Both the position numbers and the translations under genes were made by a program. Below are positions 11,703 to 47,574 of a stretch of 53,064 bases of DNA, in pieces. Within the stretch, counting starts at the first letter, position 1. Every line of letters begins with the position of its first letter. The stretch comes from Candidatus Woesearchaeota archaeon. Its GTDB lineage: Archaea; Nanobdellota; Nanobdellia; SCGC-AAA011-G17; CAYFGV01. The notes under the pieces were generated by a model. The model was given only the letters and a program-made list of their open reading frames with translations, made no database searches and was not told where the DNA came from. The DNA is taken from positions 1 to 53,064 of the forward strand of contig CAYFGV010000002.1 in assembly GCA_964342845.1 (NCBI GenBank), read 5' to 3'.

Positions 11703-12356
11703 TCAAAACCTCTAAAAACACTATAAAATTTTATAAAAAACTTTAATCTTCACGTAATATCTCTTCAGTATCCTCAACAAGTTCTGCCACATCCCATCCC
11801 ATATTTAAGTCAATAAAAGGAAGAAGAATATTTTTAAAGTAGGTTCTCACAGCATAATCAGTTCCTGCACCAAACATGCCACCATCTTTTAAAGGCCATC
11901 TTTTTTCATATCCTCCAGTATCACTTTCAGCATATAAATAATCTCCAGGAGACGGACGACCCTTTGGAACAATATCTCTAATAGAGTACCTCATCGCCTG
12001 TCTGGTTTTATGACCTTCCTCGATCTCTCTAATTCTCTCAAGTTCTATCTCGTAGGTTGACATCATCCAATTATTTTCTACGTCAACAGAAGAAATAGCG
12101 GAGTTTCCTACATCTAACGCATTAAATACATTCCCTAAAACATTTCCAGTACCTGTTTTACTTGAATAGGAAGTCAGTGTCACGTATCCGCCAATTAATA
12201 TTAATGCTAGGGAAAGAGTTTTCTTTAATCTAGAGGGTGGCCTTACACTCTCAGGTTCTATAGGTATTCCACAATCCCCTTCCCTTCTTAATTTTGACGA
12301 ATAATCTACCATTTTTACCAAATAAAGGAAAACCTCTACTTTTTTAGAGGTTTTGA
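11703..12356. repeat. 16-bp perfect inverted repeat TCAAAACCTCTAAAAA at 11703-11718 / 12341-12356 flanking one gene
   Basis: Read directly; third partial copy AAAACCTCTA at 12330-12339 forms a local palindrome. Confidence 0.65.
11743..12312 (-). CDS. hypothetical membrane-anchored protein
   Basis: One TM segment; start moved to MVDYSS at 12312. Confidence 0.6.
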   Translation of the reverse strand: MVDYSSKLRREGDCGIPIEPESVRPPSRLKKTLSLALILIGGYVTLTSYSSKTGTGNVLGNVFNALDVGNSAISSVDVENNWMMSTYEIELERIREIEEGHKTRQAMRYSIRDIVPKGRPSPGDYLYAESDTGGYEKRWPLKDGGMFGAGTDYAVRTYFKNILLPFIDLNMGWDVAELVEDTEEILRED

Positions 12357-12393
12357 TAACCTTTTTAAACACCCAAAACCTAAAAAAAACCCT

Positions 12394-12564
12394 ATGAAAT
12401 CAGACATTAAATCAAGACTAGAAGAAGCAGAAAGAAATTTTAGATTCGAATACAGAGAAGAACTACTCTCAACAAGAGAAGAAGATACAGAAAGAGCTGC
12501 AAAAGGATATGAAACACATGTCGCACCTCTAAAAAAAGAATACGACGAACTCTATCAAAAATAA
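12394..12564 (+). CDS. hypothetical 56-aa helical protein (not in ORF track)
   Basis: MKSDIKSRLEEAERNFRFEYREELL...YDELYQK; TATA about 25 nt upstream; abuts elp3. Confidence 0.6.
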   Translation: MKSDIKSRLEEAERNFRFEYREELLSTREEDTERAAKGYETHVAPLKKEYDELYQK

Positions 12565-12566
12565 TA

Positions 12567-14213
12567 ATGAAATCCTACATAAAAGAACTACTAGAAAACA
12601 TAAACAATAACACTTCTCAACATAAATTAAACTCTATTAAATCAAAACTAGCAAAAAAATACAAACTAAAAAAAATCCCAACAAACATAGAAATAATCCA
12701 CCATTTAACTTCTAAACAAAAAGAAAAATACAAAAATACAATAAAAACAAAACCAGTAAGAACAATTTCAGGAGTAGCTCCTTTAGCTATTATGACTTCT
12801 CCAGCAAAATGTCCACATGGAAAATGCACTTATTGTCCTGGAGGACCAAACTCAACTTTCGGTACAACACCTCAATCATACACAGGAAGAGAACCAGCAA
12901 CAATGAGAGCAATAAGAAACAATTACGACCCTTACCTTCAAGTTTTCAACAGATTAGAACAATACACTCTATTAAACCAAACAATAGAAAAAATAGAATT
13001 AATCATAATGGGAGGAACATTCCCAGCAAGAACAATAGAATATCAAGATAGTTTCATAACATTCGCCTTAAAAGCACTAAACGACTTCTCAGATCTATTC
13101 TATAAAAACAACAAATTCAATCTAGAAAAATTCAAAACCTTCTTTGAACTTCCAGGAGATAAAAACAACATAAAAAGAACAAAATCAATACAAGGTAAAA
13201 TCTTAAAACTAAAAAAAACTTCAAACTTAAAAAAAGAACAACTAAGAAATGAAACTTCTAACATAAGAGCAATAGCTATCTGTATAGAAACAAGACCAGA
13301 CTATGGAAAACTAGCCCATGGAAACCAAATGTTAAGATTAGGAGCAACAAGAGTTGAACTAGGGATACAATCTGTATATGACGACGTATTAAAAAAAGTA
13401 AAAAGAGGACACACAACCAAAGATTCTAAAGAATCAATTAAAACCTTAAGAAATTTAGGTTTCAAGATATCAACCCACTATATGCTTGGACTTCCATTAA
13501 CACCAGAAAAAAAAGACTATCAAGGAATAAAAATATTATTCAAAGACTACAAACCAGACATGCTAAAATTATATCCTTGCTTACTTGCAAAAGGAACAGA
13601 ACTTTACAAAGATAAAAAATTCAAACCTTTAACAACAAAAAGAGCAATCCACCTAATCTCAAAAATTAAACCTTTAATACCTGAATACACAAGAATACAA
13701 AGAATTCAAAGAGATATTCCATCAAAACATATAGAAGCAGGAGTATTAGTAACAAACCTAAGACAATATATTAAAAACACAAACTGCAGATGCATTAGAT
13801 GTAGAGAAATAGGTCATATTAAAGACTTAAAAGATAAAAACCACCATATAACAATCTCTCACTATAAAGCCTCAGACGGAGATGAATTCTTTATCTCAGC
13901 TGAAAACAAACAAGCTCTATTTGGTTATTGTAGGCTAAGATTTCCTTCACAACAATTAAGAAAAGAAATAACAAAAGACTCAGCCATAATTAGAGAGATA
14001 CATGTTTACTCTTCATCCATTCCATTAAAACAAACTTCAAAAGATTCAATCCAACACAAAGGAATAGGAAAAAAACTTCTTAAAACAGCAGAAAGAATAG
14101 CAAAATCAAATAAAAAGAATAAAATGGTAGTAATCTCTGGAATAGGGGTTAGAGAATATTTCAAAAAATTAAATTACAAAAAACAAGGACCATATATGAT
14201 CAAAAGAATCTAA
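12567..14213 (+). CDS. elp3: Elp3 tRNA uridine(34) acetyltransferase (radical SAM + GNAT)
   Basis: KPVRTISGVA, CPHGKCTYCPGG, ETRPD, QHKGIGK, VISGIGVREY. Confidence 0.96.
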   Translation: MKSYIKELLENINNNTSQHKLNSIKSKLAKKYKLKKIPTNIEIIHHLTSKQKEKYKNTIKTKPVRTISGVAPLAIMTSPAKCPHGKCTYCPGGPNSTFGTTPQSYTGREPATMRAIRNNYDPYLQVFNRLEQYTLLNQTIEKIELIIMGGTFPARTIEYQDSFITFALKALNDFSDLFYKNNKFNLEKFKTFFELPGDKNNIKRTKSIQGKILKLKKTSNLKKEQLRNETSNIRAIAICIETRPDYGKLAHGNQMLRLGATRVELGIQSVYDDVLKKVKRGHTTKDSKESIKTLRNLGFKISTHYMLGLPLTPEKKDYQGIKILFKDYKPDMLKLYPCLLAKGTELYKDKKFKPLTTKRAIHLISKIKPLIPEYTRIQRIQRDIPSKHIEAGVLVTNLRQYIKNTNCRCIRCREIGHIKDLKDKNHHITISHYKASDGDEFFISAENKQALFGYCRLRFPSQQLRKEITKDSAIIREIHVYSSSIPLKQTSKDSIQHKGIGKKLLKTAERIAKSNKKNKMVVISGIGVREYFKKLNYKKQGPYMIKRI

Positions 14214-15811
14214 TAATAAGATTGAGGAAGATCACTTTCTTCTGATGGTTTTGCTTTAACAACTCTTTTTCTTTTCTTGCAACAGTTTTTATAATAACCA
14301 TAGATTGCGATAACACCTAGAACAACAATTATAAAGGCAATTAAGGAAATCCAGCCCCAATTATAATCTGTTTCTTCAACACCACTAACAAAAGGTTTTC
14401 CATCATTATAATAAATAAAACTATCATCTTCATCATAGTAATAATAGTTATCTCCACCATCGTCTTCGTCATAATAATAATAGTTGTCTTCATCATCATC
14501 CCAGACATAATGATAATCAGCATGAATTCTTAAAGTAAATTGTTCAGTATCATAACCACCCTTGCCATCTGAAACAGTAATTGTTATCTCATAAGTTCCA
14601 ACATCTCTCCAATCAGGAGTAAATCTTATTTCTCCAGTTGAAGAATCAATATCAAATAAACTAGTGTCATCTGAAAAACTTAAACTATCTCCATCAACAT
14701 CATATGCATCAACATTATAATAAAATTCACGATCTTCTTCACCATATAAATACCCTATACTATAAATTACAGGAGCATTATTTCCATCTCCATCGTCACC
14801 ATCTTCCACATAAGGGTCAGGTATTTCTTCTGTATTCTTAACAGTAATCTTAATTGTTTCAGAATCTTCTAATTCACCATCACTAACAGTAAAAGTTATA
14901 TAATAATATCCAGCATCAGAATAATCTGTTTGCCATGAAAAATATCCACCGCTTGTAAAACTAGCTCCAGAAGGCAATCCACTAGCACTAAAACTTAGCT
15001 CATCTCCATCTTCATCACTAGCACTAACTGTAAAAGATAATTTAGCACCTTCAACAGTTTCTTTATTTCCAATCTCCTTTAATTCAGGAGCAGTATTTTC
15101 ATCCCCATTATCTTGTGGAACATCATTAACAGTAATCTTAACAACTTCATAAGCATCTAAATTGCCATCACTAACAGTAAAAGTTACATAGTAAGTTCCA
15201 GCATCAGAATAATCTGTTTGCCACGAAAAATCAGCAGTTCCATCTCCATTGTCTACAAAACTAGCCCCATAAGGGTTTCCTAATATTGAAAAACTTAAAC
15301 AATCACCATCAGCATCACTAGCACTAATTGGAATAGTTAATTTATTTCCTTCATCAACAGATTTAGATCCTATAGAATCCAACTCAGGAGCATTATTTTG
15401 CTCTTCAGGTGGTTCTCCAGAAGGGTTAACAGTTAAGCTTAAGTCCTCATAATCAGAATAAGAACCATCTTCTCCAATAACCCTAATAATATAATTTCCT
15501 TCCTCACCATAATCACTTTCTGTTATTGTAAAATAATTCCAATACTCTTTTCCATTAAAACTATCAGAAGCTATAACACTAACTAAATCATAATTATTAT
15601 CTAATAAATTTATTTCATATTCTATTCCGTCTTTTGTAGTACTTATCCATACAAAAAGCTCAGCAGATTCACCTTCAGTAATTGTAACACTTGTTCCACC
15701 ATTATCAACCCAATAACTAGTAGTTACAATAGCTGCAGAAACAGGAACCACATTAATTAAACTAAATACAAATAAAAACAATACCAATAACTTTAATTTA
15801 TTCTTTATCAT
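14210..15811 (-). CDS. cell-surface protein with tandem Ig-like/cadherin-like domains and C-terminal TM
   Basis: Signal peptide; three N.AP...ASD.DGD.LSFS...FTVSDG repeats; Tyr/Asp linker; TM. Confidence 0.85.
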   Translation of the reverse strand: MIKNKLKLLVLFLFVFSLINVVPVSAAIVTTSYWVDNGGTSVTITEGESAELFVWISTTKDGIEYEINLLDNNYDLVSVIASDSFNGKEYWNYFTITESDYGEEGNYIIRVIGEDGSYSDYEDLSLTVNPSGEPPEEQNNAPELDSIGSKSVDEGNKLTIPISASDADGDCLSFSILGNPYGASFVDNGDGTADFSWQTDYSDAGTYYVTFTVSDGNLDAYEVVKITVNDVPQDNGDENTAPELKEIGNKETVEGAKLSFTVSASDEDGDELSFSASGLPSGASFTSGGYFSWQTDYSDAGYYYITFTVSDGELEDSETIKITVKNTEEIPDPYVEDGDDGDGNNAPVIYSIGYLYGEEDREFYYNVDAYDVDGDSLSFSDDTSLFDIDSSTGEIRFTPDWRDVGTYEITITVSDGKGGYDTEQFTLRIHADYHYVWDDDEDNYYYYDEDDGGDNYYYYDEDDSFIYYNDGKPFVSGVEETDYNWGWISLIAFIIVVLGVIAIYGYYKNCCKKRKRVVKAKPSEESDLPQSYY

Positions 15812-17033
15812 CTTCCTTTATAATTTCTACTAAATTAACTCCTACATTTACACCATAATTATTACCTTTAATATCGTCACTAGTCCAAAAACCTCCAATG
15901 TAAAATTTACCAAAATTCAAACCAGCTTCTAACCCATATAATGTACTAGAATTAGTAACATCTTCAGAAGGATTTTCGTCATATCCTATAGTATTCCCAG
16001 TCTTATCAATCTGTTTAACCCCTTCTGTCTCAGAAACTCTCTCAGAAACATATCCTAGTTTTCCTGTAAGTGTAAAATTACTTTTATTTAATGAAGCATT
16101 AACATGAACTTCTTCAATAGATTTAGTTTCTCTATTAGTATACCATTCACTATGCCCGCCTTCAGGATTATCATCTCCTACAATAGTTGAAATATCTGAA
16201 CTAAAATCAGCAAAACTTCTGCCATATCCTGTCCCTAAACCAAAATTTTCTGAAATATTATAAACAAAGTCTAAAGTAGCAAACTGATCTCCAGGAACAT
16301 ACCCTGCTGATATTCTTGTTTTAATTTTTTTAATGGAATCTTCCTCTTCCTTTTCTTGTATCGTTTCTTCTTTAATTTCTTCCTTTTTCACCCTTTCCGT
16401 TGTAATATTTAATAATTTAGCTCCATCAGAAGTTACAATATAAGTATCACCGCTTCCTGTTTCATTAAATATATAAAAACTATTTTCTTCTCTCTTTTTA
16501 TCTTTAATTACAACATTCTCCGACTCTTCACTTCTTTTATCAACAACAAAAAAATCACCTACAACACTTGCAACTTGTTGTCCATCATGACTAGCTCCAC
16601 CTATTAGTTTATATCTACCAGGCTCTAATTCGTCATAACAAATTTCATAATCCTTTCCAATTTTTATCACTTCTTTAGAAGGCTCATCCCCATTAAATCT
16701 TAAAAGATAATATTCTACAGGCAAGTTACTAAGTTCTTTCTTCTCATCTGCACTTAATTCCTTCTCAGCTCCATTTCCAAAAACTGTTTCCTTGGTTTCA
16801 AAATTCATACATTCATCAGGCTCTAAAACAAGACTCTCTAACCTCTCTGAGACACCGAGATCAAAGTCTACACCATCCTTTTTCACTTCAACTTCTGGAA
16901 TAACAACAACATTGTGCTGTTTTTGTGTACCTTCGGTGTATAATTTATCTTTATTAACACCTGCATAAGCAAAACTAGTAAAAAAAGAAAGTAAAGTAGT
17001 TCCAATAAGTCCTAATTTAGTGGAATATTTCAT
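15798..17033 (-). CDS. secreted protein with C-terminal beta-barrel-like domain
   Basis: Signal peptide ending AYA; eight alternating amphipathic Gly/aromatic strands in the last ~180 aa. Confidence 0.65.
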   Translation of the reverse strand: MKYSTKLGLIGTTLLSFFTSFAYAGVNKDKLYTEGTQKQHNVVVIPEVEVKKDGVDFDLGVSERLESLVLEPDECMNFETKETVFGNGAEKELSADEKKELSNLPVEYYLLRFNGDEPSKEVIKIGKDYEICYDELEPGRYKLIGGASHDGQQVASVVGDFFVVDKRSEESENVVIKDKKREENSFYIFNETGSGDTYIVTSDGAKLLNITTERVKKEEIKEETIQEKEEEDSIKKIKTRISAGYVPGDQFATLDFVYNISENFGLGTGYGRSFADFSSDISTIVGDDNPEGGHSEWYTNRETKSIEEVHVNASLNKSNFTLTGKLGYVSERVSETEGVKQIDKTGNTIGYDENPSEDVTNSSTLYGLEAGLNFGKFYIGGFWTSDDIKGNNYGVNVGVNLVEIIKEDDKE

Positions 17034-17035
17034 TC

Positions 17036-17539
17036 TTACTTTGTTTCATCTTGAATAGCAGTTTCTGTACTATCTGATTGACCTGCTAAACTATCTGGTT
17101 GAGTAATAGCCTGGATAAATGCCTGAACAATCTCTTCTTCTGGCATATTAACTCTTACTTTATTACTTTCGTTTCCTATATAAGCAATGTCTTCAGCTTT
17201 AGTATTCACTTCATTACTATCACCAGGTGCATAGATTAGTGTAGGATTTTCATTATTACTATGAACATCATTGTTCTTCCCTAGTAAAACATATAAATCT
17301 CCCTTACTATAAATAAAAGTCTCATTATCACTCTTATAAACTCTTCCCACATTTTCAGCTTCATAACCTTCATTCGCACCAATAGTCTTTGCATTCTCAA
17401 TTAACTGCTCTAACTTAGGTTCATAAGCAGGTGTAGAATCTATAGGCTGAACTGGCGTTCCTTTTGATGCACAACCTACTGTAAAAGCTGTCAAAACTCC
17501 TAAACCTAAATCTCTACCATATCTTAAATATTTATTCAT
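17036..17539 (-). CDS. putative lipoprotein
   Basis: Basic N-region, hydrophobic stretch, TVGC lipobox-like. Confidence 0.6.
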   Translation of the reverse strand: MNKYLRYGRDLGLGVLTAFTVGCASKGTPVQPIDSTPAYEPKLEQLIENAKTIGANEGYEAENVGRVYKSDNETFIYSKGDLYVLLGKNNDVHSNNENPTLIYAPGDSNEVNTKAEDIAYIGNESNKVRVNMPEEEIVQAFIQAITQPDSLAGQSDSTETAIQDETK

Positions 17540-17587
17540 TTTTATATTTCTCCATTAAATTTCATTAAAAAACACAATATACCATTA

Positions 17588-17616
17588 TTTATAAACCTTT
17601 CGTTTCTGTAACCACT
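17588..17616 (-). promoter_or_regulatory. extended promoter AGTGGTTACAGAAACGAAAGGTTTATAAA (upstream box + BRE + TATA)
   Basis: Near-identical copy at 23859-23886; related copies at 8440-8467 and 35091-35116. Confidence 0.7.
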
Positions 17617-17670
17617 CTAAAATAATTAAACAAAAACATTTATAAACCAAAAAACCTTCAAAAGACCAAC

Positions 17671-17922
17671 ATGGAACTAGGCGGTAACATAGAATTAATA
17701 AATTTCGACGACATAGAACATGGAAAATTAATTGTAATAAAGAAATTAATAGGCAACCTAACTAAAGAAATTACAGATAAAAACTTCAAAAATATAAAAA
17801 TAGAACTAAATAATAAAGAAATAGATATAAAATTAACCTTAAAAGATAAAATAAAAACCTCTAAAGAATCAGACGAAAACATATTCTATGCAATAAATAA
17901 AGCATTCAAAAAACTTAAATAA
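17671..17922 (+). CDS. small protein, possible HPF/RaiA-like fold
   Basis: Predicted beta-alpha-beta-beta-beta-alpha pattern ending NIFYAINKAFKKL. Confidence 0.5.
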   Translation: MELGGNIELINFDDIEHGKLIVIKKLIGNLTKEITDKNFKNIKIELNNKEIDIKLTLKDKIKTSKESDENIFYAINKAFKKLK

Positions 17923-17956
17923 AAAGCTTTATAAAACAACATAACCTCTACTTTCT

Positions 17957-18253
17957 ATGGTAAAAAGAATAGGCGGTCTAAGAAGAAAATCTAGGCACAA
18001 ATTAAAAAGAAACATAAGAGAAAGAGGGAAGCTTTCCTTAAGTAAGTTTTTTCAAACTTTCAAAATAGGAGAAAAAGCAACAATAATGGCTAATTCAGCA
18101 ATTCAAAAAGCATTACCTCCTTTAAGATTACACGGAAAAACAGGAGAAGTAACTAAAAAACAAGGATCATGCTATTATATAAAGATAAAAGACCATAATA
18201 AAACAAAACAAATAATAACACACCCAACACACTTAAAAAAATGTCAAAAATAG
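17957..18253 (+). CDS. rpl21e: 50S ribosomal protein L21e
   Basis: RRKSRHKL, RLHGKTG, HPTHL. Confidence 0.95.
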   Translation: MVKRIGGLRRKSRHKLKRNIRERGKLSLSKFFQTFKIGEKATIMANSAIQKALPPLRLHGKTGEVTKKQGSCYYIKIKDHNKTKQIITHPTHLKKCQK

Positions 18254-18585
18254 AAATATTGCAGGAAGAACCTTTAGCTTTACACGAAATAAAGGAAAAA
18301 CTTAGTGAAGTTAAAAAAAGAGATAAAGAATTAAGCTTTAGAACAAATAAAGCTGAAGAATACCTAAACATAATCACAAAAGTAAAGCTTAAAAAGCCAA
18401 AAGACTTAGAAAAAGAGTTAAATGCATTAAAATTTCAAAGATTAAAATCAAAACAAATAAAGAAGATAATTGACTTACAACCAATAGACTTAGACAGTCT
18501 AAAAATAGTATTATCTAACGAAAACTTAACATTAAAACAAGAAGAATTACAAAAAATCGTTGAAACAGTGAAGAAACATGTTTAA
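18241..18585 (+). CDS. rpoF: RNA polymerase subunit F (Rpo4)
   Basis: ELSFR...A.EYL, KIIDLQP; conserved position after rpl21e. Confidence 0.9.
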   Translation: MSKIEILQEEPLALHEIKEKLSEVKKRDKELSFRTNKAEEYLNIITKVKLKKPKDLEKELNALKFQRLKSKQIKKIIDLQPIDLDSLKIVLSNENLTLKQEELQKIVETVKKHV

Positions 18586-32105: not shown

Positions 32106-32573
32106 ATGAAACTTAAAAGAATAATCATGGGGGGACTTGTATTAGCTGGTCTCTCTACTTCACTTGGTTGTGATGGAAAGGAACAAAAACCCTTAGATGC
32201 AATTGCAGGTGTACCTGAATTACCAGCATCAAGTGTTGGGGATACAATTACAGGTGTACCTAAGTTACCAGCATCATTTATCACAAAAAACAACTATTCT
32301 ACTGAAGGCTATGTAAGTTTTGTATTAGATTTACCTGATGGAAAAGAAGTACTTTGCAGCTATAATGGACTTTATCAGACTAATAAAGTTGCCGATATTG
32401 ATGCTGTGGTAAAAGATGCCCATTTAGATAAACAGGCAATTGGTGTTTATGGAAAATTGGTTGGAAATAGAATGAGTTTTCTTGAGGTTAACCACCCGGA
32501 TTTTGACAGAATAAAATTAATGCATAATTCTAAAGGTGCTAAACATCCAGAGTATCAGAAATCTTCTTTTTAA
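32106..32573 (+). CDS. putative lipoprotein with short internal duplication
   Basis: SLGC lipobox-like; IAGVPELPAS / ITGVPKLPAS repeat. Confidence 0.65.
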   Translation: MKLKRIIMGGLVLAGLSTSLGCDGKEQKPLDAIAGVPELPASSVGDTITGVPKLPASFITKNNYSTEGYVSFVLDLPDGKEVLCSYNGLYQTNKVADIDAVVKDAHLDKQAIGVYGKLVGNRMSFLEVNHPDFDRIKLMHNSKGAKHPEYQKSSF

Positions 32574-35310: not shown

Positions 35311-35856
35311 TTATTCTAAATAACCTTTAAGTTTAGAATTAAGTTCATCATAAAGCTTAGAGTCATTTCCCTTAACAATACCAGCATATTCTTGGCACTT
35401 CTCTAAACATTCTTCTTTATAACTCTCCGCCCTAGAACCAGTAATCTTATCAACCACTTTACTTAAATTATAATAAGCCAAACATAAATTTGCATAAACA
35501 ACATCCTGAGCACTACAATCTTTACCATCCCACTTAACTCTATACCTATCATTTAAACCCAAAGCAAATAAACTATCACTTGTGTTTTCTATTCTTTCTA
35601 AACTCTCTAATCTGTCAAAATAATTAAATGGCTTTTCAGAATCATCTATCAACTTTTTGTTATAATCTTCAAATAATTTCATTAAACCACTGTAATGATC
35701 TTGTATCTTACTTTGTCCTTCAGTAAGAGAAGAACTACAAGGTGCTTCCTTTAAAAACCCTTCAAGACTTTTTCTATTTGAATCATCTTTAACACATCCA
35801 GCCACAGCTAAAGCTCCTCCAGCAACCAATAAAGCCAATAATTTTGATTTTTCCAT
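35311..35856 (-). CDS. putative lipoprotein
   Basis: LAVAGC lipobox; GGAGG RBS before ATG 35856. Confidence 0.7.
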   Translation of the reverse strand: MEKSKLLALLVAGGALAVAGCVKDDSNRKSLEGFLKEAPCSSSLTEGQSKIQDHYSGLMKLFEDYNKKLIDDSEKPFNYFDRLESLERIENTSDSLFALGLNDRYRVKWDGKDCSAQDVVYANLCLAYYNLSKVVDKITGSRAESYKEECLEKCQEYAGIVKGNDSKLYDELNSKLKGYLE

Positions 35857-35890
35857 ATTTTTTAGCAAATAACCTCCTTTTTAAATCTAA

Positions 35891-43753: not shown

Positions 43754-43951
43754 ATGCTCACAAAAATTAAAGTCAAAGGTATGCACTGCAAAAGTTGTGA
43801 AATATTAATCAAAGATTCCTTAGAAGAAACAAAAGGAATTAAAAAAGTTAATATAAACAAAGAAATCGCAACAATAGAATTTGACGAATCTCAAATTTCA
43901 GAAAATAACATAAAAAAAATAATAGAAAAGGAAGGTTACAAAGTTGAATAA
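43754..43951 (+). CDS. copZ: HMA copper chaperone
   Basis: GMHCKSC, 65 aa, I...GY. Confidence 0.9.
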   Translation: MLTKIKVKGMHCKSCEILIKDSLEETKGIKKVNINKEIATIEFDESQISENNIKKIIEKEGYKVE

Positions 43952-45359
43952 AACAATTAATTTCACTGCAAAAGGAACAGTATGTGAATCTTGCTCTGAA
44001 ATAATAAAAAAACAAGCAAAAGAAATACAAGGAGTAGAAAAAATAGAATTCAACTACTCAACAGAAAGAGGTTCTGTAACTTTTGATGAATCTAAAACAA
44101 ATATAGAAGAAATTTTTAATAAAATAAATGAAAAAGGATATACTTGTAGTTTTAACAAACCAAAAAATAAAGTTCTAGGCTGGACATTCGGAATAATAGG
44201 ATCACTTATAGTACTATATTTCATATTTAATTTTGTTGACGGCATTGCTTTACCAGAAATAACCCAAAATATGGGCTATGGTCTACTCTTCTTAGTAGGT
44301 CTCTTAACAGGATTCCATTGTGTAAGCATGTGTGGAGGATTTGTTGTATCTTACACTGCAAAACATGCACAACAAGGAACTAAAACTTATAAATCTCACT
44401 TATCTTACGGTTTAGGAAGAGTAATCTCTTACACAGTCATAGGTGCTATCTTTGGTTTAATAGGTTCAATAATTGCATTTACTCCAACAATGAGAGGAGT
44501 AGCTGGAATACTCGCAGGTTTATTTTTAATATTATTCGGTCTAAAGATGTTAAACATTTTCCCGGTCCTAAGAAAAATTCAATTTAAAACACCAAAATTC
44601 ATAACAAAACTCACAGGAGCACAATCTCCAGAACAATCTAGCCCTTTAATTATAGGTCTACTAAACGGACTTATGCTTGCCTGCGGTCCTTTACAAGCCA
44701 TTTACATAATGGCAGCAGGAACAGGGAGTATGATTGAAGGAGCCAAACTATTATTTGCTTTCGCTTTAGGAACCATCCCAGTAATGCTTGGTTTCGGTTA
44801 CCTCACAACTTTTGTCTCAACTAAAGCAACCCAAAAAATCTTAAAAGCCTCTGGAGTAATTGTAATCATCTTAGGAATAATAATGTTTAACAGAGGACTA
44901 GCATTAACAGGAACAGGTTTAGATGCAAATTCATTAATTACTTCAGTCTCAGCAAGTGGAGAAGACATAACAGGCAATGCAGTGATAACATTAGAAGACG
45001 GCTACCAAATAATTGAGATGAAAGTAGATAGATACGGTTGGGATCCAGATAAATTTGTATTAGAAAAAGGAATTCCAGTAAAATGGATAATTACTGGTGA
45101 AGAAATAAATGGTTGTAATAACGCAATCCAAGTTCCAAAATTAGATCTATATTTTGATATAAAAGAAGGAGAACAAATAATCGAATTCACACCAGAAGAA
45201 GAAGGAGTTATATCCTGGAGTTGTTGGATGGGTATGATTCCAGGAACATTTATTGTAAAAGAAGATATAAGCAACGTAGAAGAAATTCAACAAGAACTAG
45301 ACTCTGTAGTAACACCTAGTGGAGGTTCTTGTGGTGGTGGTTGTGGTTGTGGAGGATGA
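43944..45359 (+). CDS. HMA + DsbD_2/TauE-like membrane domain + cupredoxin fusion
   Basis: CESC; HCVSMCGG and LACG; C...SCWMGM cupredoxin; GGSCGGGCGCGG tail. Confidence 0.88.
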   Translation: MNKTINFTAKGTVCESCSEIIKKQAKEIQGVEKIEFNYSTERGSVTFDESKTNIEEIFNKINEKGYTCSFNKPKNKVLGWTFGIIGSLIVLYFIFNFVDGIALPEITQNMGYGLLFLVGLLTGFHCVSMCGGFVVSYTAKHAQQGTKTYKSHLSYGLGRVISYTVIGAIFGLIGSIIAFTPTMRGVAGILAGLFLILFGLKMLNIFPVLRKIQFKTPKFITKLTGAQSPEQSSPLIIGLLNGLMLACGPLQAIYIMAAGTGSMIEGAKLLFAFALGTIPVMLGFGYLTTFVSTKATQKILKASGVIVIILGIIMFNRGLALTGTGLDANSLITSVSASGEDITGNAVITLEDGYQIIEMKVDRYGWDPDKFVLEKGIPVKWIITGEEINGCNNAIQVPKLDLYFDIKEGEQIIEFTPEEEGVISWSCWMGMIPGTFIVKEDISNVEEIQQELDSVVTPSGGSCGGGCGCGG

Positions 45360-45405
45360 TAACCAATATAATCATAAATAATATAAAAAAAGTATTTCAA
45401 ATAAC

Positions 45406-47574
45406 ATGAAAAAAACAACACTAACTATCTCTGGAATGCATTGTGCATCTTGTGCTCTTATAATAGATAAAGCACTAAAGAAAATTCCAAGCATTAAAAA
45501 TTCAGTAACAAACTTTTCAACTTCAAAAACAACAGTAGAATACAACCCTTCTAAAATAAAAATAGAACAAATAACAAAAAAAATACAAGCACTAGGTTAT
45601 TCTGCAGAAGAACAAAAAGACCCATATAAACAAGAACAAATAAAAAAGAAAGAACTAAAAAACTTAAAATCGAAACTAATTTTCTCTTTAATTCTAGCAA
45701 TTCCAGCATTTATTCTAGGTATGTTTTTCATGAAATCTCCACTAATACCTTATCAAGACTTTGTTTTATGGGCTTTAGCAACACCTATTCAATTCTATGT
45801 TGGTTCCCAGTTTTACAAAGGTGCTTTTGGAGCATTAAAAAACAAAACAGCAAACATGGACACCTTAATTGCTTTAGGCACATCTGCAGCTTACTTTTTC
45901 AGTATTTACGCAGTTTTATCAGGAGAGCATCATCAATATTTTGAAGCATCTGCAGTATTGATAACATTGGTAGTCTTAGGAAAATACTTAGAAGCAATAG
46001 CTAAAGGAAAAACATCTGAAGCAATTAAAAAATTAATGCATCTAACACCTAAAAAAGCAACTGTAATTAGAAACAAAAAAGAAATAATAATTCCTATCTC
46101 GGAAATAAAACTCAACGATATTATTTTAATAAAACCAGGAGCTAAAATCCCTGTAGACGGTCTAATTATAGAAGGACATTCTAGTATAAATGAATCCATG
46201 ATAACTGGAGAATCCATACCTGTAGAAAAGAAAAAAGGTGACCAAGTTATTGCAGGAACAATAAATAAACACGGCTCTTTTAAGTTTAAAGCAACAAAAA
46301 TAGGAAAAAACACAACTTTAGCGCAAATCATAAAATTAATCGAAGAAGCTCAAGGAAAAAAAGCACCAATCCAAAGATTCGCTGATACAGTCTCAGCTTA
46401 TTTTGTTCCTGTTGTTATTCTTATTGCAATCTTAACATTTTCATCTTGGTACTTTATCTTTAACGCAGAATTATCTTTCGCTTTAATAGCATCTGTAGCT
46501 GTATTAGTTATAGCCTGCCCTTGTGCTCTAGGCTTAGCCACTCCAACAGCAATAATGGTTGGCACAGGAAAAGGAGCTAAAAAAGGCATACTCATCAAAG
46601 GAGGAGATGCTTTAGAAACTGCACACAAACTAAAATATATTATATTCGACAAAACAGGAACAATTACAAAAGGAGTCCCAGAAGTTACAGATATAATTCC
46701 TTTAAACAAAAAAACAAAAAAACAAACACTACAAATAGCAGCAAGCATTGAAAAGAATTCAGAACATCCATTGGCAGAATCAATAGTAAACCATGCAAAA
46801 AATATCAAGTTAAAAAAAATAACAAATTTTAAAGCAATTCCAGGACACGGAGTTACTTGCAAAATTAATAAAAACACTTATCATCTAGGAAACTTAAAAT
46901 TACTTAAGAAACATAAAATAAAAACTTCAAGCTCAAAAAAAATAGATTCTCTAGAAAAACAAGGAAAAACAGTTATGCTTTTAGCTGAAAATAAAGAACT
47001 TATAGCTCTAATAGCAGTAGCAGACACAATAAAAGAAACCTCTCCAAGAGCAGTCAAATACCTACAAAATTTAGGATTAAAAGTTTACATGATTACAGGA
47101 GATAATCAAAGGACAGCAGAAGCCATAGCAAAAAAAGCTAATATTAAACACATTTTTTCAGAAGTTCTTCCAGAAGATAAAGCAAAATACGTTAAGAAAC
47201 TACAAAGAAAAGGAAAAGTAGCTATGGTTGGAGATGGAATTAATGACGCACCAGCTCTAGCCCAAGCAGATATTGGAATAGCAATGGGTTCAGGAACAGA
47301 TGTTGCCATGGAAACAGGAAATGTAGTATTAATGAGAAATAACCTAATAGATGTTCCTAGATCAATTAAACTAAGTAAGATAACAATGTCAAAGATAAAA
47401 CAAAACATGTTCTGGGCACTATTCTACAACACATTAGGAATTCCAATTGCTGCAGGTGTTTTATATCCTTTCACAGGTTGGTTATTAAACCCAATGATTG
47501 CTGGAGCTGCTATGGCCTTCTCTAGTGTTTCTGTAGTAACAAACTCCTTACTAATGAAAAAGAAGAAAATATGA
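45406..47574 (+). CDS. copA: copper-translocating P1B-type ATPase
   Basis: GMHCASC, TGES, CPC, DKTGT, HP, GDGINDAP, YN and MAFSS. Confidence 0.96.
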   Translation: MKKTTLTISGMHCASCALIIDKALKKIPSIKNSVTNFSTSKTTVEYNPSKIKIEQITKKIQALGYSAEEQKDPYKQEQIKKKELKNLKSKLIFSLILAIPAFILGMFFMKSPLIPYQDFVLWALATPIQFYVGSQFYKGAFGALKNKTANMDTLIALGTSAAYFFSIYAVLSGEHHQYFEASAVLITLVVLGKYLEAIAKGKTSEAIKKLMHLTPKKATVIRNKKEIIIPISEIKLNDIILIKPGAKIPVDGLIIEGHSSINESMITGESIPVEKKKGDQVIAGTINKHGSFKFKATKIGKNTTLAQIIKLIEEAQGKKAPIQRFADTVSAYFVPVVILIAILTFSSWYFIFNAELSFALIASVAVLVIACPCALGLATPTAIMVGTGKGAKKGILIKGGDALETAHKLKYIIFDKTGTITKGVPEVTDIIPLNKKTKKQTLQIAASIEKNSEHPLAESIVNHAKNIKLKKITNFKAIPGHGVTCKINKNTYHLGNLKLLKKHKIKTSSSKKIDSLEKQGKTVMLLAENKELIALIAVADTIKETSPRAVKYLQNLGLKVYMITGDNQRTAEAIAKKANIKHIFSEVLPEDKAKYVKKLQRKGKVAMVGDGINDAPALAQADIGIAMGSGTDVAMETGNVVLMRNNLIDVPRSIKLSKITMSKIKQNMFWALFYNTLGIPIAAGVLYPFTGWLLNPMIAGAAMAFSSVSVVTNSLLMKKKKI

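Follow-up and report, generated by a model that had tools for sequence, protein, structure and literature searches.

A predicted eight-stranded outer-membrane-type beta-barrel protein encoded together with an immunoglobulin-repeat stalk in a Nanobdellota archaeon

Results

Three coupled genes for exported proteins

The window analysed here, a 53,064-nucleotide stretch of contig CAYFGV010000002.1 (assembly GCA_964342845.1) from a Candidatus Woesearchaeota archaeon, carries three tightly coupled minus-strand genes (Table 1) for a 167-amino-acid (aa) lipobox protein (P0003), a 411-aa protein ending in a predicted beta-barrel (P0001) and a 533-aa immunoglobulin (Ig)-repeat stalk (P0002). The source genome (G000) comprises 573 kb on 28 contigs and is 84.8% complete and 0.07% contaminated; the sequencing runs that best match the stretch are marine metagenomes. 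According to the open reading frame (ORF) coordinates, P0003 and P0001 are 2 bp apart and P0001 and P0002 overlap by 14 bp. N-terminal export signals can be read from all three protein sequences, and the TATA box TTTATAAA lies ~50 nt ahead of the first ATG of P0003; judging from the gene spacing, the three genes probably share one promoter. ORF coordinates, sequence and motif scan agree here with a preliminary description of this DNA, which had reported the same coupling and export signals.

The C-terminal part of P0001 is modelled as an outer-membrane-type barrel

AlphaFold2, supplied with residues 232-411 of P0001 and a 21-sequence alignment of relatives found by synteny, returned eight long strands closing an 8-stranded barrel (235-246, 251-259, 264-273, 294-317, 320-343, 357-374, 377-386 and 390-405; predicted local distance difference test score, pLDDT, 87.4; predicted TM-score, pTM, 0.74). 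The eight amphipathic strands quoted in the preliminary description are present in the protein and coincide with those of the model. Foldseek listed Ail, OmpX, OmpA and OprF (E 1e-6 to 8e-5) and CarO at the top (E 1e-6 to 1e-4 for all five), with ranks 1-11 all taken by outer-membrane barrels, and in a VIA comparison with 48,161 chains the seven best hits were membrane barrels with Z scores of 12.7-11.4: OprF (12.7; root-mean-square deviation 2.4, 119 residues aligned), a designed transmembrane barrel (12.3), Dot/Icm porin III (11.9), TtoA (11.8), PagL (11.6), NspA (11.4) and OmpA (11.4). In the ESM Atlas, the same residues led to OMP_b-brl, Ail/Lom and OmpA clusters (feature scores 0.94-0.97, TM-scores 0.61-0.74). 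The fold comparison proposed earlier for residues ~235-401 thus has barrels of the outer-membrane protein (OMP) type at its top rather than a soluble sandwich or a lipocalin. Of the earlier label "OmpA/OmpW-type", the OMP-type, 8-stranded part stands, while OmpW (Z 10.8) is equalled or slightly surpassed as a fit by OmpA, OmpX and Ail (11.4-12.7).

The modelled strands are two-faced. Face A (35 residues, mean hydropathy [KD] 2.02) holds no charged residue and 12 aromatic ones located at both strand ends, whereas face B (37 residues, mean KD -0.95) includes 11 glycines and 6 charged residues. Strands 4-8 of 20 relatives are split in the same way (KD 1.98 vs -1.13; charged residues 2% vs 25%; glycine 7% vs 27%), and the best-conserved barrel residues are the face-B glycines G244, G267, G371 and G394. 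As the Gly-rich faces of such barrels point into the lumen, face A would be the lipid-facing belt, judging from residue type and homology. A home-made amphipathic-strand score of 33.1 for P0001 was reached by none of 2000 shuffles (maximum 22.4), yet this score fails to separate barrels from helical membrane proteins (the next ORFs score 31.8 and 31.5). Taken together, model and residue pattern support a barrel of the OMP type with eight strands, one face of which is hydrophobic and girdled by aromatic residues; its insertion into a membrane is very likely.

Sequence similarity is far weaker. Single-sequence searches with P0001 returned only the protein itself among 5117 candidates (1/5117) and among 61 related genomes (1/61), and a single relative, P0004 (38% identity), in 1.84 billion representatives; mean barrel identity across the family is 17%. 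Searches of PDB sequences gave weak matches only (Opa60, E 0.012; in a second search, E 0.97). Eight of 16 family members match PF13505 at E<=0.1 (best 3.1e-5) and one relative matches the autotransporter family PF03797 (E 0.045); P0001 itself has no match to this 12-stranded translocator barrel, and its model has 8 strands. A beta-signal is missing, in that the last strand ends V-N-L and is followed by a 10-residue charged tail with no terminal aromatic residue, while F, W or Y ends 7 of the 21 aligned members, and P0004 and the orthologue in the related genome G001 end in Phe. Because P0001 stays below the family cut-offs, lacks the beta-signal and comes from a genome without a detectable beta-barrel assembly machinery (BAM; see below), it is not filed in the bacterial OMP families.

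The two extended loops are acidic, with 8 D/E against 3 K/R in loop 2. Among the 23 barrels compared, the N-terminal domain of P0001 is common only to P0004, and the N-domains across the family (90-320 residues) fall into several unrelated groups. The full-length model of P0001, built from two sequences, has a pLDDT of 37 and no more than hints at the fold of this domain.

Barrel and stalk form a conserved pair

Relatives were surveyed in 201 genomes of the order and, at class level, in 301 genomes (G numbers denote relatives' genomes, L numbers loci therein). A search with the 113-residue N-terminal domain of P0002, which forms the tip of the stalk, gave matches in 18 of the 201 genomes, three of them partial matches to other Ig proteins (L027, L032 and L033, left out), and a profile of this tip domain matched in 28. 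In 26 of these 28 genomes a barrel-like gene, recognised by a signal peptide and a barrel-like end, lies directly upstream; of the two exceptions, G088 is at a contig end (with a barrel ending another contig) and G054 is a partial match in a different protein (L115, left out). Held-out genomes that had not entered the profile showed the upstream barrel in six of eight cases (E 4e-16 to 0.02, two weak, computed against the few ORFs of those loci). Gene spacing in 13 pairs ranges from -16 to +15 nt. A barrel profile matched in 21 of the 201 genomes, and in the six that were new the barrel gene is followed by a stalk (four), a contig end (one) or a coat-like gene (one). When a profile was built from 14 synteny-chosen barrels without P0001 and P0004, P0001 came out on top among 982 ORFs (E 1.5e-8, with 0.037 for the runner-up). 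The class-level survey gave matches in 7 of its 301 genomes, including two outside the order, one with a stalk-like gene downstream (by eye) and one without. The barrel gene is single-copy and patchily distributed. Two loci with barrel-like yet apparently larger proteins (L052 in G101, L053 in G100) were kept out of the alignments.

In G001, the only other genome of the family, barrel and stalk occupy the same slot beside the same divergent 83-aa gene, with no lipoprotein gene; the barrel gene (L037:5110-6240) has a non-ATG start, an E value of 4e-10 and a terminal Phe. Since the slot in G001 lacks the lipoprotein, P0003 is accessory, a lineage-specific passenger, and the conserved unit, as read from the gene order, is the barrel plus the Ig stalk. 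The gene upstream of the barrel varies from locus to locus. The earlier proposal of a three-protein apparatus holds for the barrel coupled to an Ig-repeat surface protein but not for the lipoprotein, and a three-protein complex was rejected on this ground; the suggested homolog survey likewise bore out the pair and not the trio.

Similarity matrices of barrels and tip domains correlate (Spearman 0.36; 0 of 1000 permutations), which shared ancestry explains and which we do not take as co-evolution. A DNA-pattern scan with the stalk tip yielded no confirmed locus. As side observations, the G001 barrel gene is easily overlooked by ATG-only gene calling, and its N-domain resembles, by eye, those of G099, G052, G019 and G064 and not that of P0001. 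In many relatives (L044, L046-L052) the pair is followed by a 420-440-aa coat-like gene, whose product has a transmembrane (TM) anchor and ends in Y-Y, and then by a large exported protein; in G000 the coat-like gene lies on another contig (G000:C6:19803-21125, minus strand) and P0002 carries a similar Y-Y tail.

Stalk, lipoprotein and export signals

P0002 matches PF05345, PF17963 and PF17892 above cut-off, in three stretches each. With its signal peptide, tandem repeats and C-terminal anchor it has the make-up of an Ig-repeat surface adhesin, adhesion being predicted. Its Asp/Glu/Tyr-rich spacer (14402-14515, minus strand; 38 residues, 71% of them D, E or Y, in which the unit DNYYYYDEDD is duplicated) is possibly metal-binding. 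P0003 has a lipobox with Cys23 after an uncharged stretch and the genome encodes Lgt and LspA, so that lipidation is predicted; a lipobox scan of G000 gave 18 candidates, ~15 of them credible.

The signal peptide of P0001 was judged by pattern and hydropathy. In 18 of 18 barrel-stalk pairs, after exclusion of those with an uncertain start or a missing partner, the hydrophobic stretch of the barrel's signal peptide is weaker than that of the stalk (mean hydropathy over an 11-residue stretch [KD11] 2.02 vs 3.25), which suggests, at the sequence level, that the two proteins use different export routes. Within G000, 45 of 59 signal-like N-termini have a KD11 of at least 2.8; P0001 (1.77) and P0003 (2.02) belong to the low group, which includes false positives. 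We observed two classes of export signal in this genome, a common, very hydrophobic one and a small, weak, Gly/Ser/Thr-rich one that also occurs among lipoproteins. The weak class is found on orphan-looking genes of the window (32106-32573, plus; 35311-35868, minus; and P0003 itself) and may mark host-directed proteins.

The locus is genuinely archaeal

A bacterial type of protein in an archaeal assembly raises the question of an assembly chimera or a recent bacterial insert with no function in the archaeon, and one PF13505 match of the order survey (G097) does sit on a contig of 67% GC that resembles contamination. The GC content of the three genes (0.32-0.34) and their GC3 (GC at third codon positions; 0.12-0.16) match those of four flanking genes (0.27-0.31 and 0.16-0.20), and the promoter is of archaeal type. 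Contigs from sequencing run X1, possibly the source sample, cover 12000-16092 and 16065-18376 with no differences and at equal depth (7.9 and 8.5), their 28-nt overlap being under the tool's bridging bar; runs X3 and X4, which look like one data set, gave shorter identical pieces. An identical P0001 occurs on 6 contigs, the longest of 99,947 bp. The strongest argument for a genuinely archaeal locus is the conservation of the gene pair, found in 26 genomes including the single-contig G064, and in the same slot in G001. A chimera is thereby effectively refuted, and the earlier placement of a barrel gene in an archaeon is borne out by flanks, promoter and pair alike.

The neighbourhood is archaeal in kind. 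Besides the Elp3, 83-aa and L21e genes listed in Table 1, the window encodes RpoF, uS13, uS4, uS11, RpoD and L18e. Just past Elp3 lies an orphan gene for a membrane-anchored or exported protein with no Pfam match (11743-12372, minus), and further along a copper-resistance pair of a CopZ-domain membrane protein and a CopA-type P-type ATPase (43944-47574, plus).

Table 1. Features of the barrel-stalk locus and its flanks, in window coordinates (KD19, hydropathy over a 19-residue stretch; BRE, B recognition element).
Feature	Position	Strand	Basis and remarks
P0003 gene, 167-aa lipobox protein (Cys23), no family	17036..17539	-	No Pfam/NCBIfam match; lipobox scan; accessory, not conserved in slot
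P0001 gene, 411-aa exported protein	15798..17033	-	ORF; weak signal peptide, beta-sandwich N-domain, acidic linker, C-terminal 8-stranded barrel, 10-residue charged tail
P0001 signal peptide, residues 1-24, ends A-Y-A	16962..17033	-	Pattern and hydropathy (KD11 1.77); probable cleavage site from A-x-A
P0001 N-terminal beta-rich domain, ~residues 43-165, probably Ig-like sandwich	16539..16907	-	Low-confidence model, weak fold matches
P0001 predicted 8-stranded OMP-type beta-barrel, residues 238-401	15831..16322	-	AlphaFold2, Foldseek, VIA, face analysis
P0001 long acidic loop 2, residues 272-307, extended beta-hairpin	16113..16220	-	Model
P0001 long acidic loop 3, residues 330-364, extended beta-hairpin; conserved D343, G346, D/N354	15942..16046	-	Model, alignment
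P0002 gene, 533-aa Ig-repeat stalk	14210..15811	-	Pfam, hydropathy; strong signal peptide, tip domain, three He_PIG/Big_9/cadherin-like repeats, Asp/Tyr-rich spacer, C-terminal TM helix, tail ending S-Y-Y
Stalk tip domain, residues 27-139, marker co-occurring with barrel gene	15395..15733	-	Domain and profile searches, order survey
Stalk C-terminal TM helix, ~residues 488-506	14294..14350	-	KD19 2.64
Archaeal-type promoter: TATA box TTTATAAA (17595-17588) and purine-rich BRE-like stretch	17588..17604	-	Sequence, motif scan; putative function
Flank: archaeal Elp3, convergent, 4-bp overlap	12567..14213	+	TIGR01211, E 3.6e-180
Flank: divergent 83-aa gene (weak S30AE/HPF-like) and ribosomal L21e	17671..18253	+	Family search

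Envelope machinery and further barrels in the order

Were the cell bounded by an unrecognised second, outer membrane, as the preliminary description had considered, the barrel would be an ordinary OMP, its loops outside and its N-domain within a periplasm that the stalk would bridge. This topology fits without strain, two-membrane archaea have been reported (listed in PMC8871954), and PF13505-like genes occur in 30 of the 201 genomes (E<=0.01; 6 over cut-off, one of these 30 on the 67% GC contig), some standing alone beside archaeal ribosomal genes. The machinery expected of such a membrane did not emerge, however. The genome search for BamA/Omp85 that had been proposed gave no hit in G000 at E<=10 (the genome being 84.8% complete), none over cut-off in the 201 genomes of the order and one weak hit (1/201); POTRA domains, SecA and Lnt were not found in G000 either. 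With all detections united, many of them weak, barrels occur in ~46 of 201 genomes, against 184 of 201 for Lgt, and the near-complete genomes G002, G007, G034 and G035 have no barrel match in the PF13505 and barrel-profile surveys, although the divergence of the family makes such absence weak evidence. G000 itself yielded a single conspicuous barrel candidate and no porin-sized one, and in ARM-1, another DPANN archaeon, what looked like an outer membrane turned out to be a surface layer (S-layer; PMC11329633). A second membrane across the whole lineage is unlikely, and as an account of this barrel an outer membrane is improbable and the weaker of the two options first put forward.

What the order does possess is a bacterial-type lipoprotein pathway: in G000, Lgt (L083, G000:C4:36284-37018, E 1.7e-73) and LspA (L084, G000:C4:15366-15719, E 1.5e-26), with LspA in 96 of 101 order genomes. 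This stands in contrast to a 2025 paper according to which archaea have neither enzyme. A GGGP (geranylgeranylglyceryl phosphate) synthase over cut-off was not found in G000.

Other barrel-like genes came to light alongside. Stand-alone OMP_b-brl-like genes of 170-220 aa, mostly ending in Phe, are L002:715-1338, L005:1498-2166 (which adjoins archaeal ribosomal genes), L008:1459-2046, L011:1486-2001, L013:1465-2079 and L015:479-1039; the family profile had no significant match to the barrel of L002 (probability 0.6%), which leaves kinship of the two kinds unsupported. Larger barrel-like proteins, apparently of more than 8 strands, are encoded at L003/L053:5210-6049, L006:1498-2325, L012:1078-1971 and L052:3834-5693; two of these take the same place in the cassette. 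The OmpW-like gene on the 67% GC contig (L004, G097:C24) is bacterial, a probable contamination of an archaeal bin, and was left out.

Discussion

Transmembrane beta-barrels of this kind are regarded as a hallmark of two-membrane bacteria and of organelles, and depend on BAM. Going by the model, P0001 most likely acts as a barrel adhesin or anchor in the manner of Ail and OmpX. With Ail, OmpX and Lom (PDB 3qra, 1qj9; PF06316; Foldseek E 1e-6 to 8e-6, TM-score 0.53-0.55 by query, 9-13% identity) it shares an 8-stranded up-and-down barrel with short turns on one side and long loops that form a protruding sheet; it differs in its ~35-residue acidic loops 2 and 3, its 200-residue N-terminal part, the absence of a terminal Phe and its occurrence in an archaeon without Omp85. 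The polar, Gly-rich lumen and the aromatic girdles recall the N-terminal barrels of OmpA and OprF (PDB 1bxw, 4rlc; PF01389, PF13505), whereas the soluble domain of P0001 is N-terminal and variable instead of C-terminal and peptidoglycan-binding, and a dedicated Ig-stalk partner gene is present. OmpW, NspA, Opa, PagL, TtoA and Dot/Icm porin III of Legionella belong to the same barrel class (Z 9.0-11.9; the weak profile match to Opa60 falls here), but the lumen face of P0001 is polar, with no sign of the apolar channel of OmpW or of an enzyme site, and there is no sequence-family membership. The order of signal peptide, variable N-terminal part and C-terminal barrel is that of type Va autotransporters, whose barrel has 12 strands with a central helix; that of P0001 has 8 and a closed lumen, and its N-domain would stay on the short-turn side. 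P0002, for its part, resembles He_PIG/Big_9/cadherin-like surface proteins in its three repeats, and differs in its lineage-specific tip domain, which has no Pfam family and travels with the barrel gene. Ig-like folds have been described on DPANN surfaces, including an S-layer candidate of Nanobdella aerobiophila (10.1101/2023.10.27.564410).

We propose that the two genes, barrel and stalk, form a module for cell contact in DPANN (Nanobdellota-type) archaea, in which the barrel sits in the membrane of a partner cell and is held by the stalk; for this reading as a whole we estimate a probability of roughly 45%. P0001 would be exported, lose its signal peptide and, without a BAM of the archaeon's own, enter a bilayer, serving there as a closed anchor and not as a porin. 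Its two 35-residue loops may form a protruding beta-sheet similar to the adhesive loops of Ail and OmpX, with the swappable N-domain on the opposite side of the bilayer. P0002 would act as a surface-anchored stalk of four Ig-like domains. As the tip domain exists only together with the barrel, it is probably the barrel's dedicated partner, and may bind it directly. The barrel would come to lie in the host membrane at the contact site, and the grip of the stalk would tether symbiont to host. That the two proteins work together is likely; that the membrane entered is the partner's is an even call. The patchy, single-copy and fast-diverging barrel gene, its swapped N-domains and its atypical export signal look like those of host-interaction genes rather than of envelope housekeeping, and for this reason we favour the partner's membrane over the archaeon's own membrane, a second membrane or a barrel outside any membrane.

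Insertion into the single cytoplasmic membrane of the archaeon itself, with the barrel entering unaided after export and serving with the stalk as an adhesin or anchor associated with the surface or S-layer, would require no delivery to another cell. The near-universal Lgt and LspA suggest a membrane with bacterial-type lipid handling, the missing GGGP synthase makes host-derived lipids probable, and in many relatives the pair directly precedes the TM-anchored coat-like protein. Yet insertion from outside would leave the long loops in the cytoplasm, an odd place for an adhesin-like sheet if this topology is right; a helix anchor would be simpler for the same job, and the distinct class of signal peptide would go unexplained. 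We regard this alternative as doubtful.

Several points weigh against a barrel in the partner's membrane, and some of them against any membrane. P0001 has no barrel-family match in Pfam or NCBIfam, PF13505, PF01389 and PF06316 included. In the VIA comparison the membrane barrels are followed, at Z 8-10.9, by soluble barrels that share the 8-stranded topology (NHBA, hemophilin, HpuA, fHbp, TbpB, avidins and designed barrels), so that fold alone does not decide between the two, and the outward face was assigned with strand phases set by eye, not from model coordinates. According to PMC7383365, small barrels need BAM in vivo and fold spontaneously in thin bilayers but poorly in native-type lipids, a difficulty for all membrane readings. 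Insertion would also require the passage of both long acidic loops through the bilayer. Two barrels (G076, G213) have no downstream stalk gene, and a C-terminal TM helix is present in 8 stalks out of 15 and missing from the other 7, so the anchor is not universal. Besides, kin genomes are not independent, and 18/18 and 26/28 overstate the number of events. A soluble surface barrel of the fHbp, TbpB or avidin kind, or one whose apolar face is buried in an oligomer or protein lattice, would account for the missing insertion machine and for the charged tail of P0001 in a family where a minority of members end in an aromatic residue. However, one whole face of P0001 and its relatives is uncharged with aromatic residues at both strand ends while the charges are confined to the Gly-rich face, and sequence-level matches go to OMP families rather than to soluble ones; a barrel outside the membrane is in our view quite unlikely.

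In a bolder form of the partner-membrane proposal, these archaea would live as parasites of Gram-negative bacteria and install a docking receptor of their own making: Sec and BAM of the host, or self-insertion, would place the barrel in the host's outer membrane, loops outward and gripped by the stalk tip, with the N-domain in the host periplasm, and the weak, bacterial-style signal peptide would set the barrel precursor apart from ordinary archaeal exports. This remains a long shot. If true, the Lgt/LspA pathway would reflect life on host-derived bacterial phospholipids, and the system would amount to cross-domain parasitism with Tir/intimin-like logic. The likeness to Tir and intimin of attaching and effacing E. 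coli, where the pathogen's own receptor is planted in the partner membrane and bound by an Ig-domain adhesin, is one of function only: there the injected protein, Tir, is helical and it is intimin that has the barrel, and the roles of the folds differ from those in P0001 and P0002.

The literature searched, which did not extend to subscription journals or to supplements (where PMC12228718 and PMC8204110 may list proteins of this kind), yielded no account of OMP-type barrels with eight strands from DPANN archaea. PMC12228718 points to a supplementary-table entry from Altiarchaeales that may be a distant relative of PopA; the main text of a study of 208 complete Nanobdellota genomes (10.64898/2026.05.13.725050) is without the terms "outer membrane", "OmpA" and "porin", as is PMC11420986 without "barrel" and "porin". 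Bacterial hosts of DPANN archaea are left open in PMC8204110.

In summary, the present work raises the question whether an archaeal barrel, for which no bacterial insertion machine was found, enters the membrane of its own cell or that of a partner. A conserved archaeal family of barrel plus stalk in the absence of Omp85 would imply that archaea can assemble barrels without BAM, that a second membrane has gone unnoticed or that the barrel is delivered to the membrane of a partner. Whichever applies, two expressible proteins should provide a molecular handle on the attachment of DPANN archaea and on their possible bacterial hosts.

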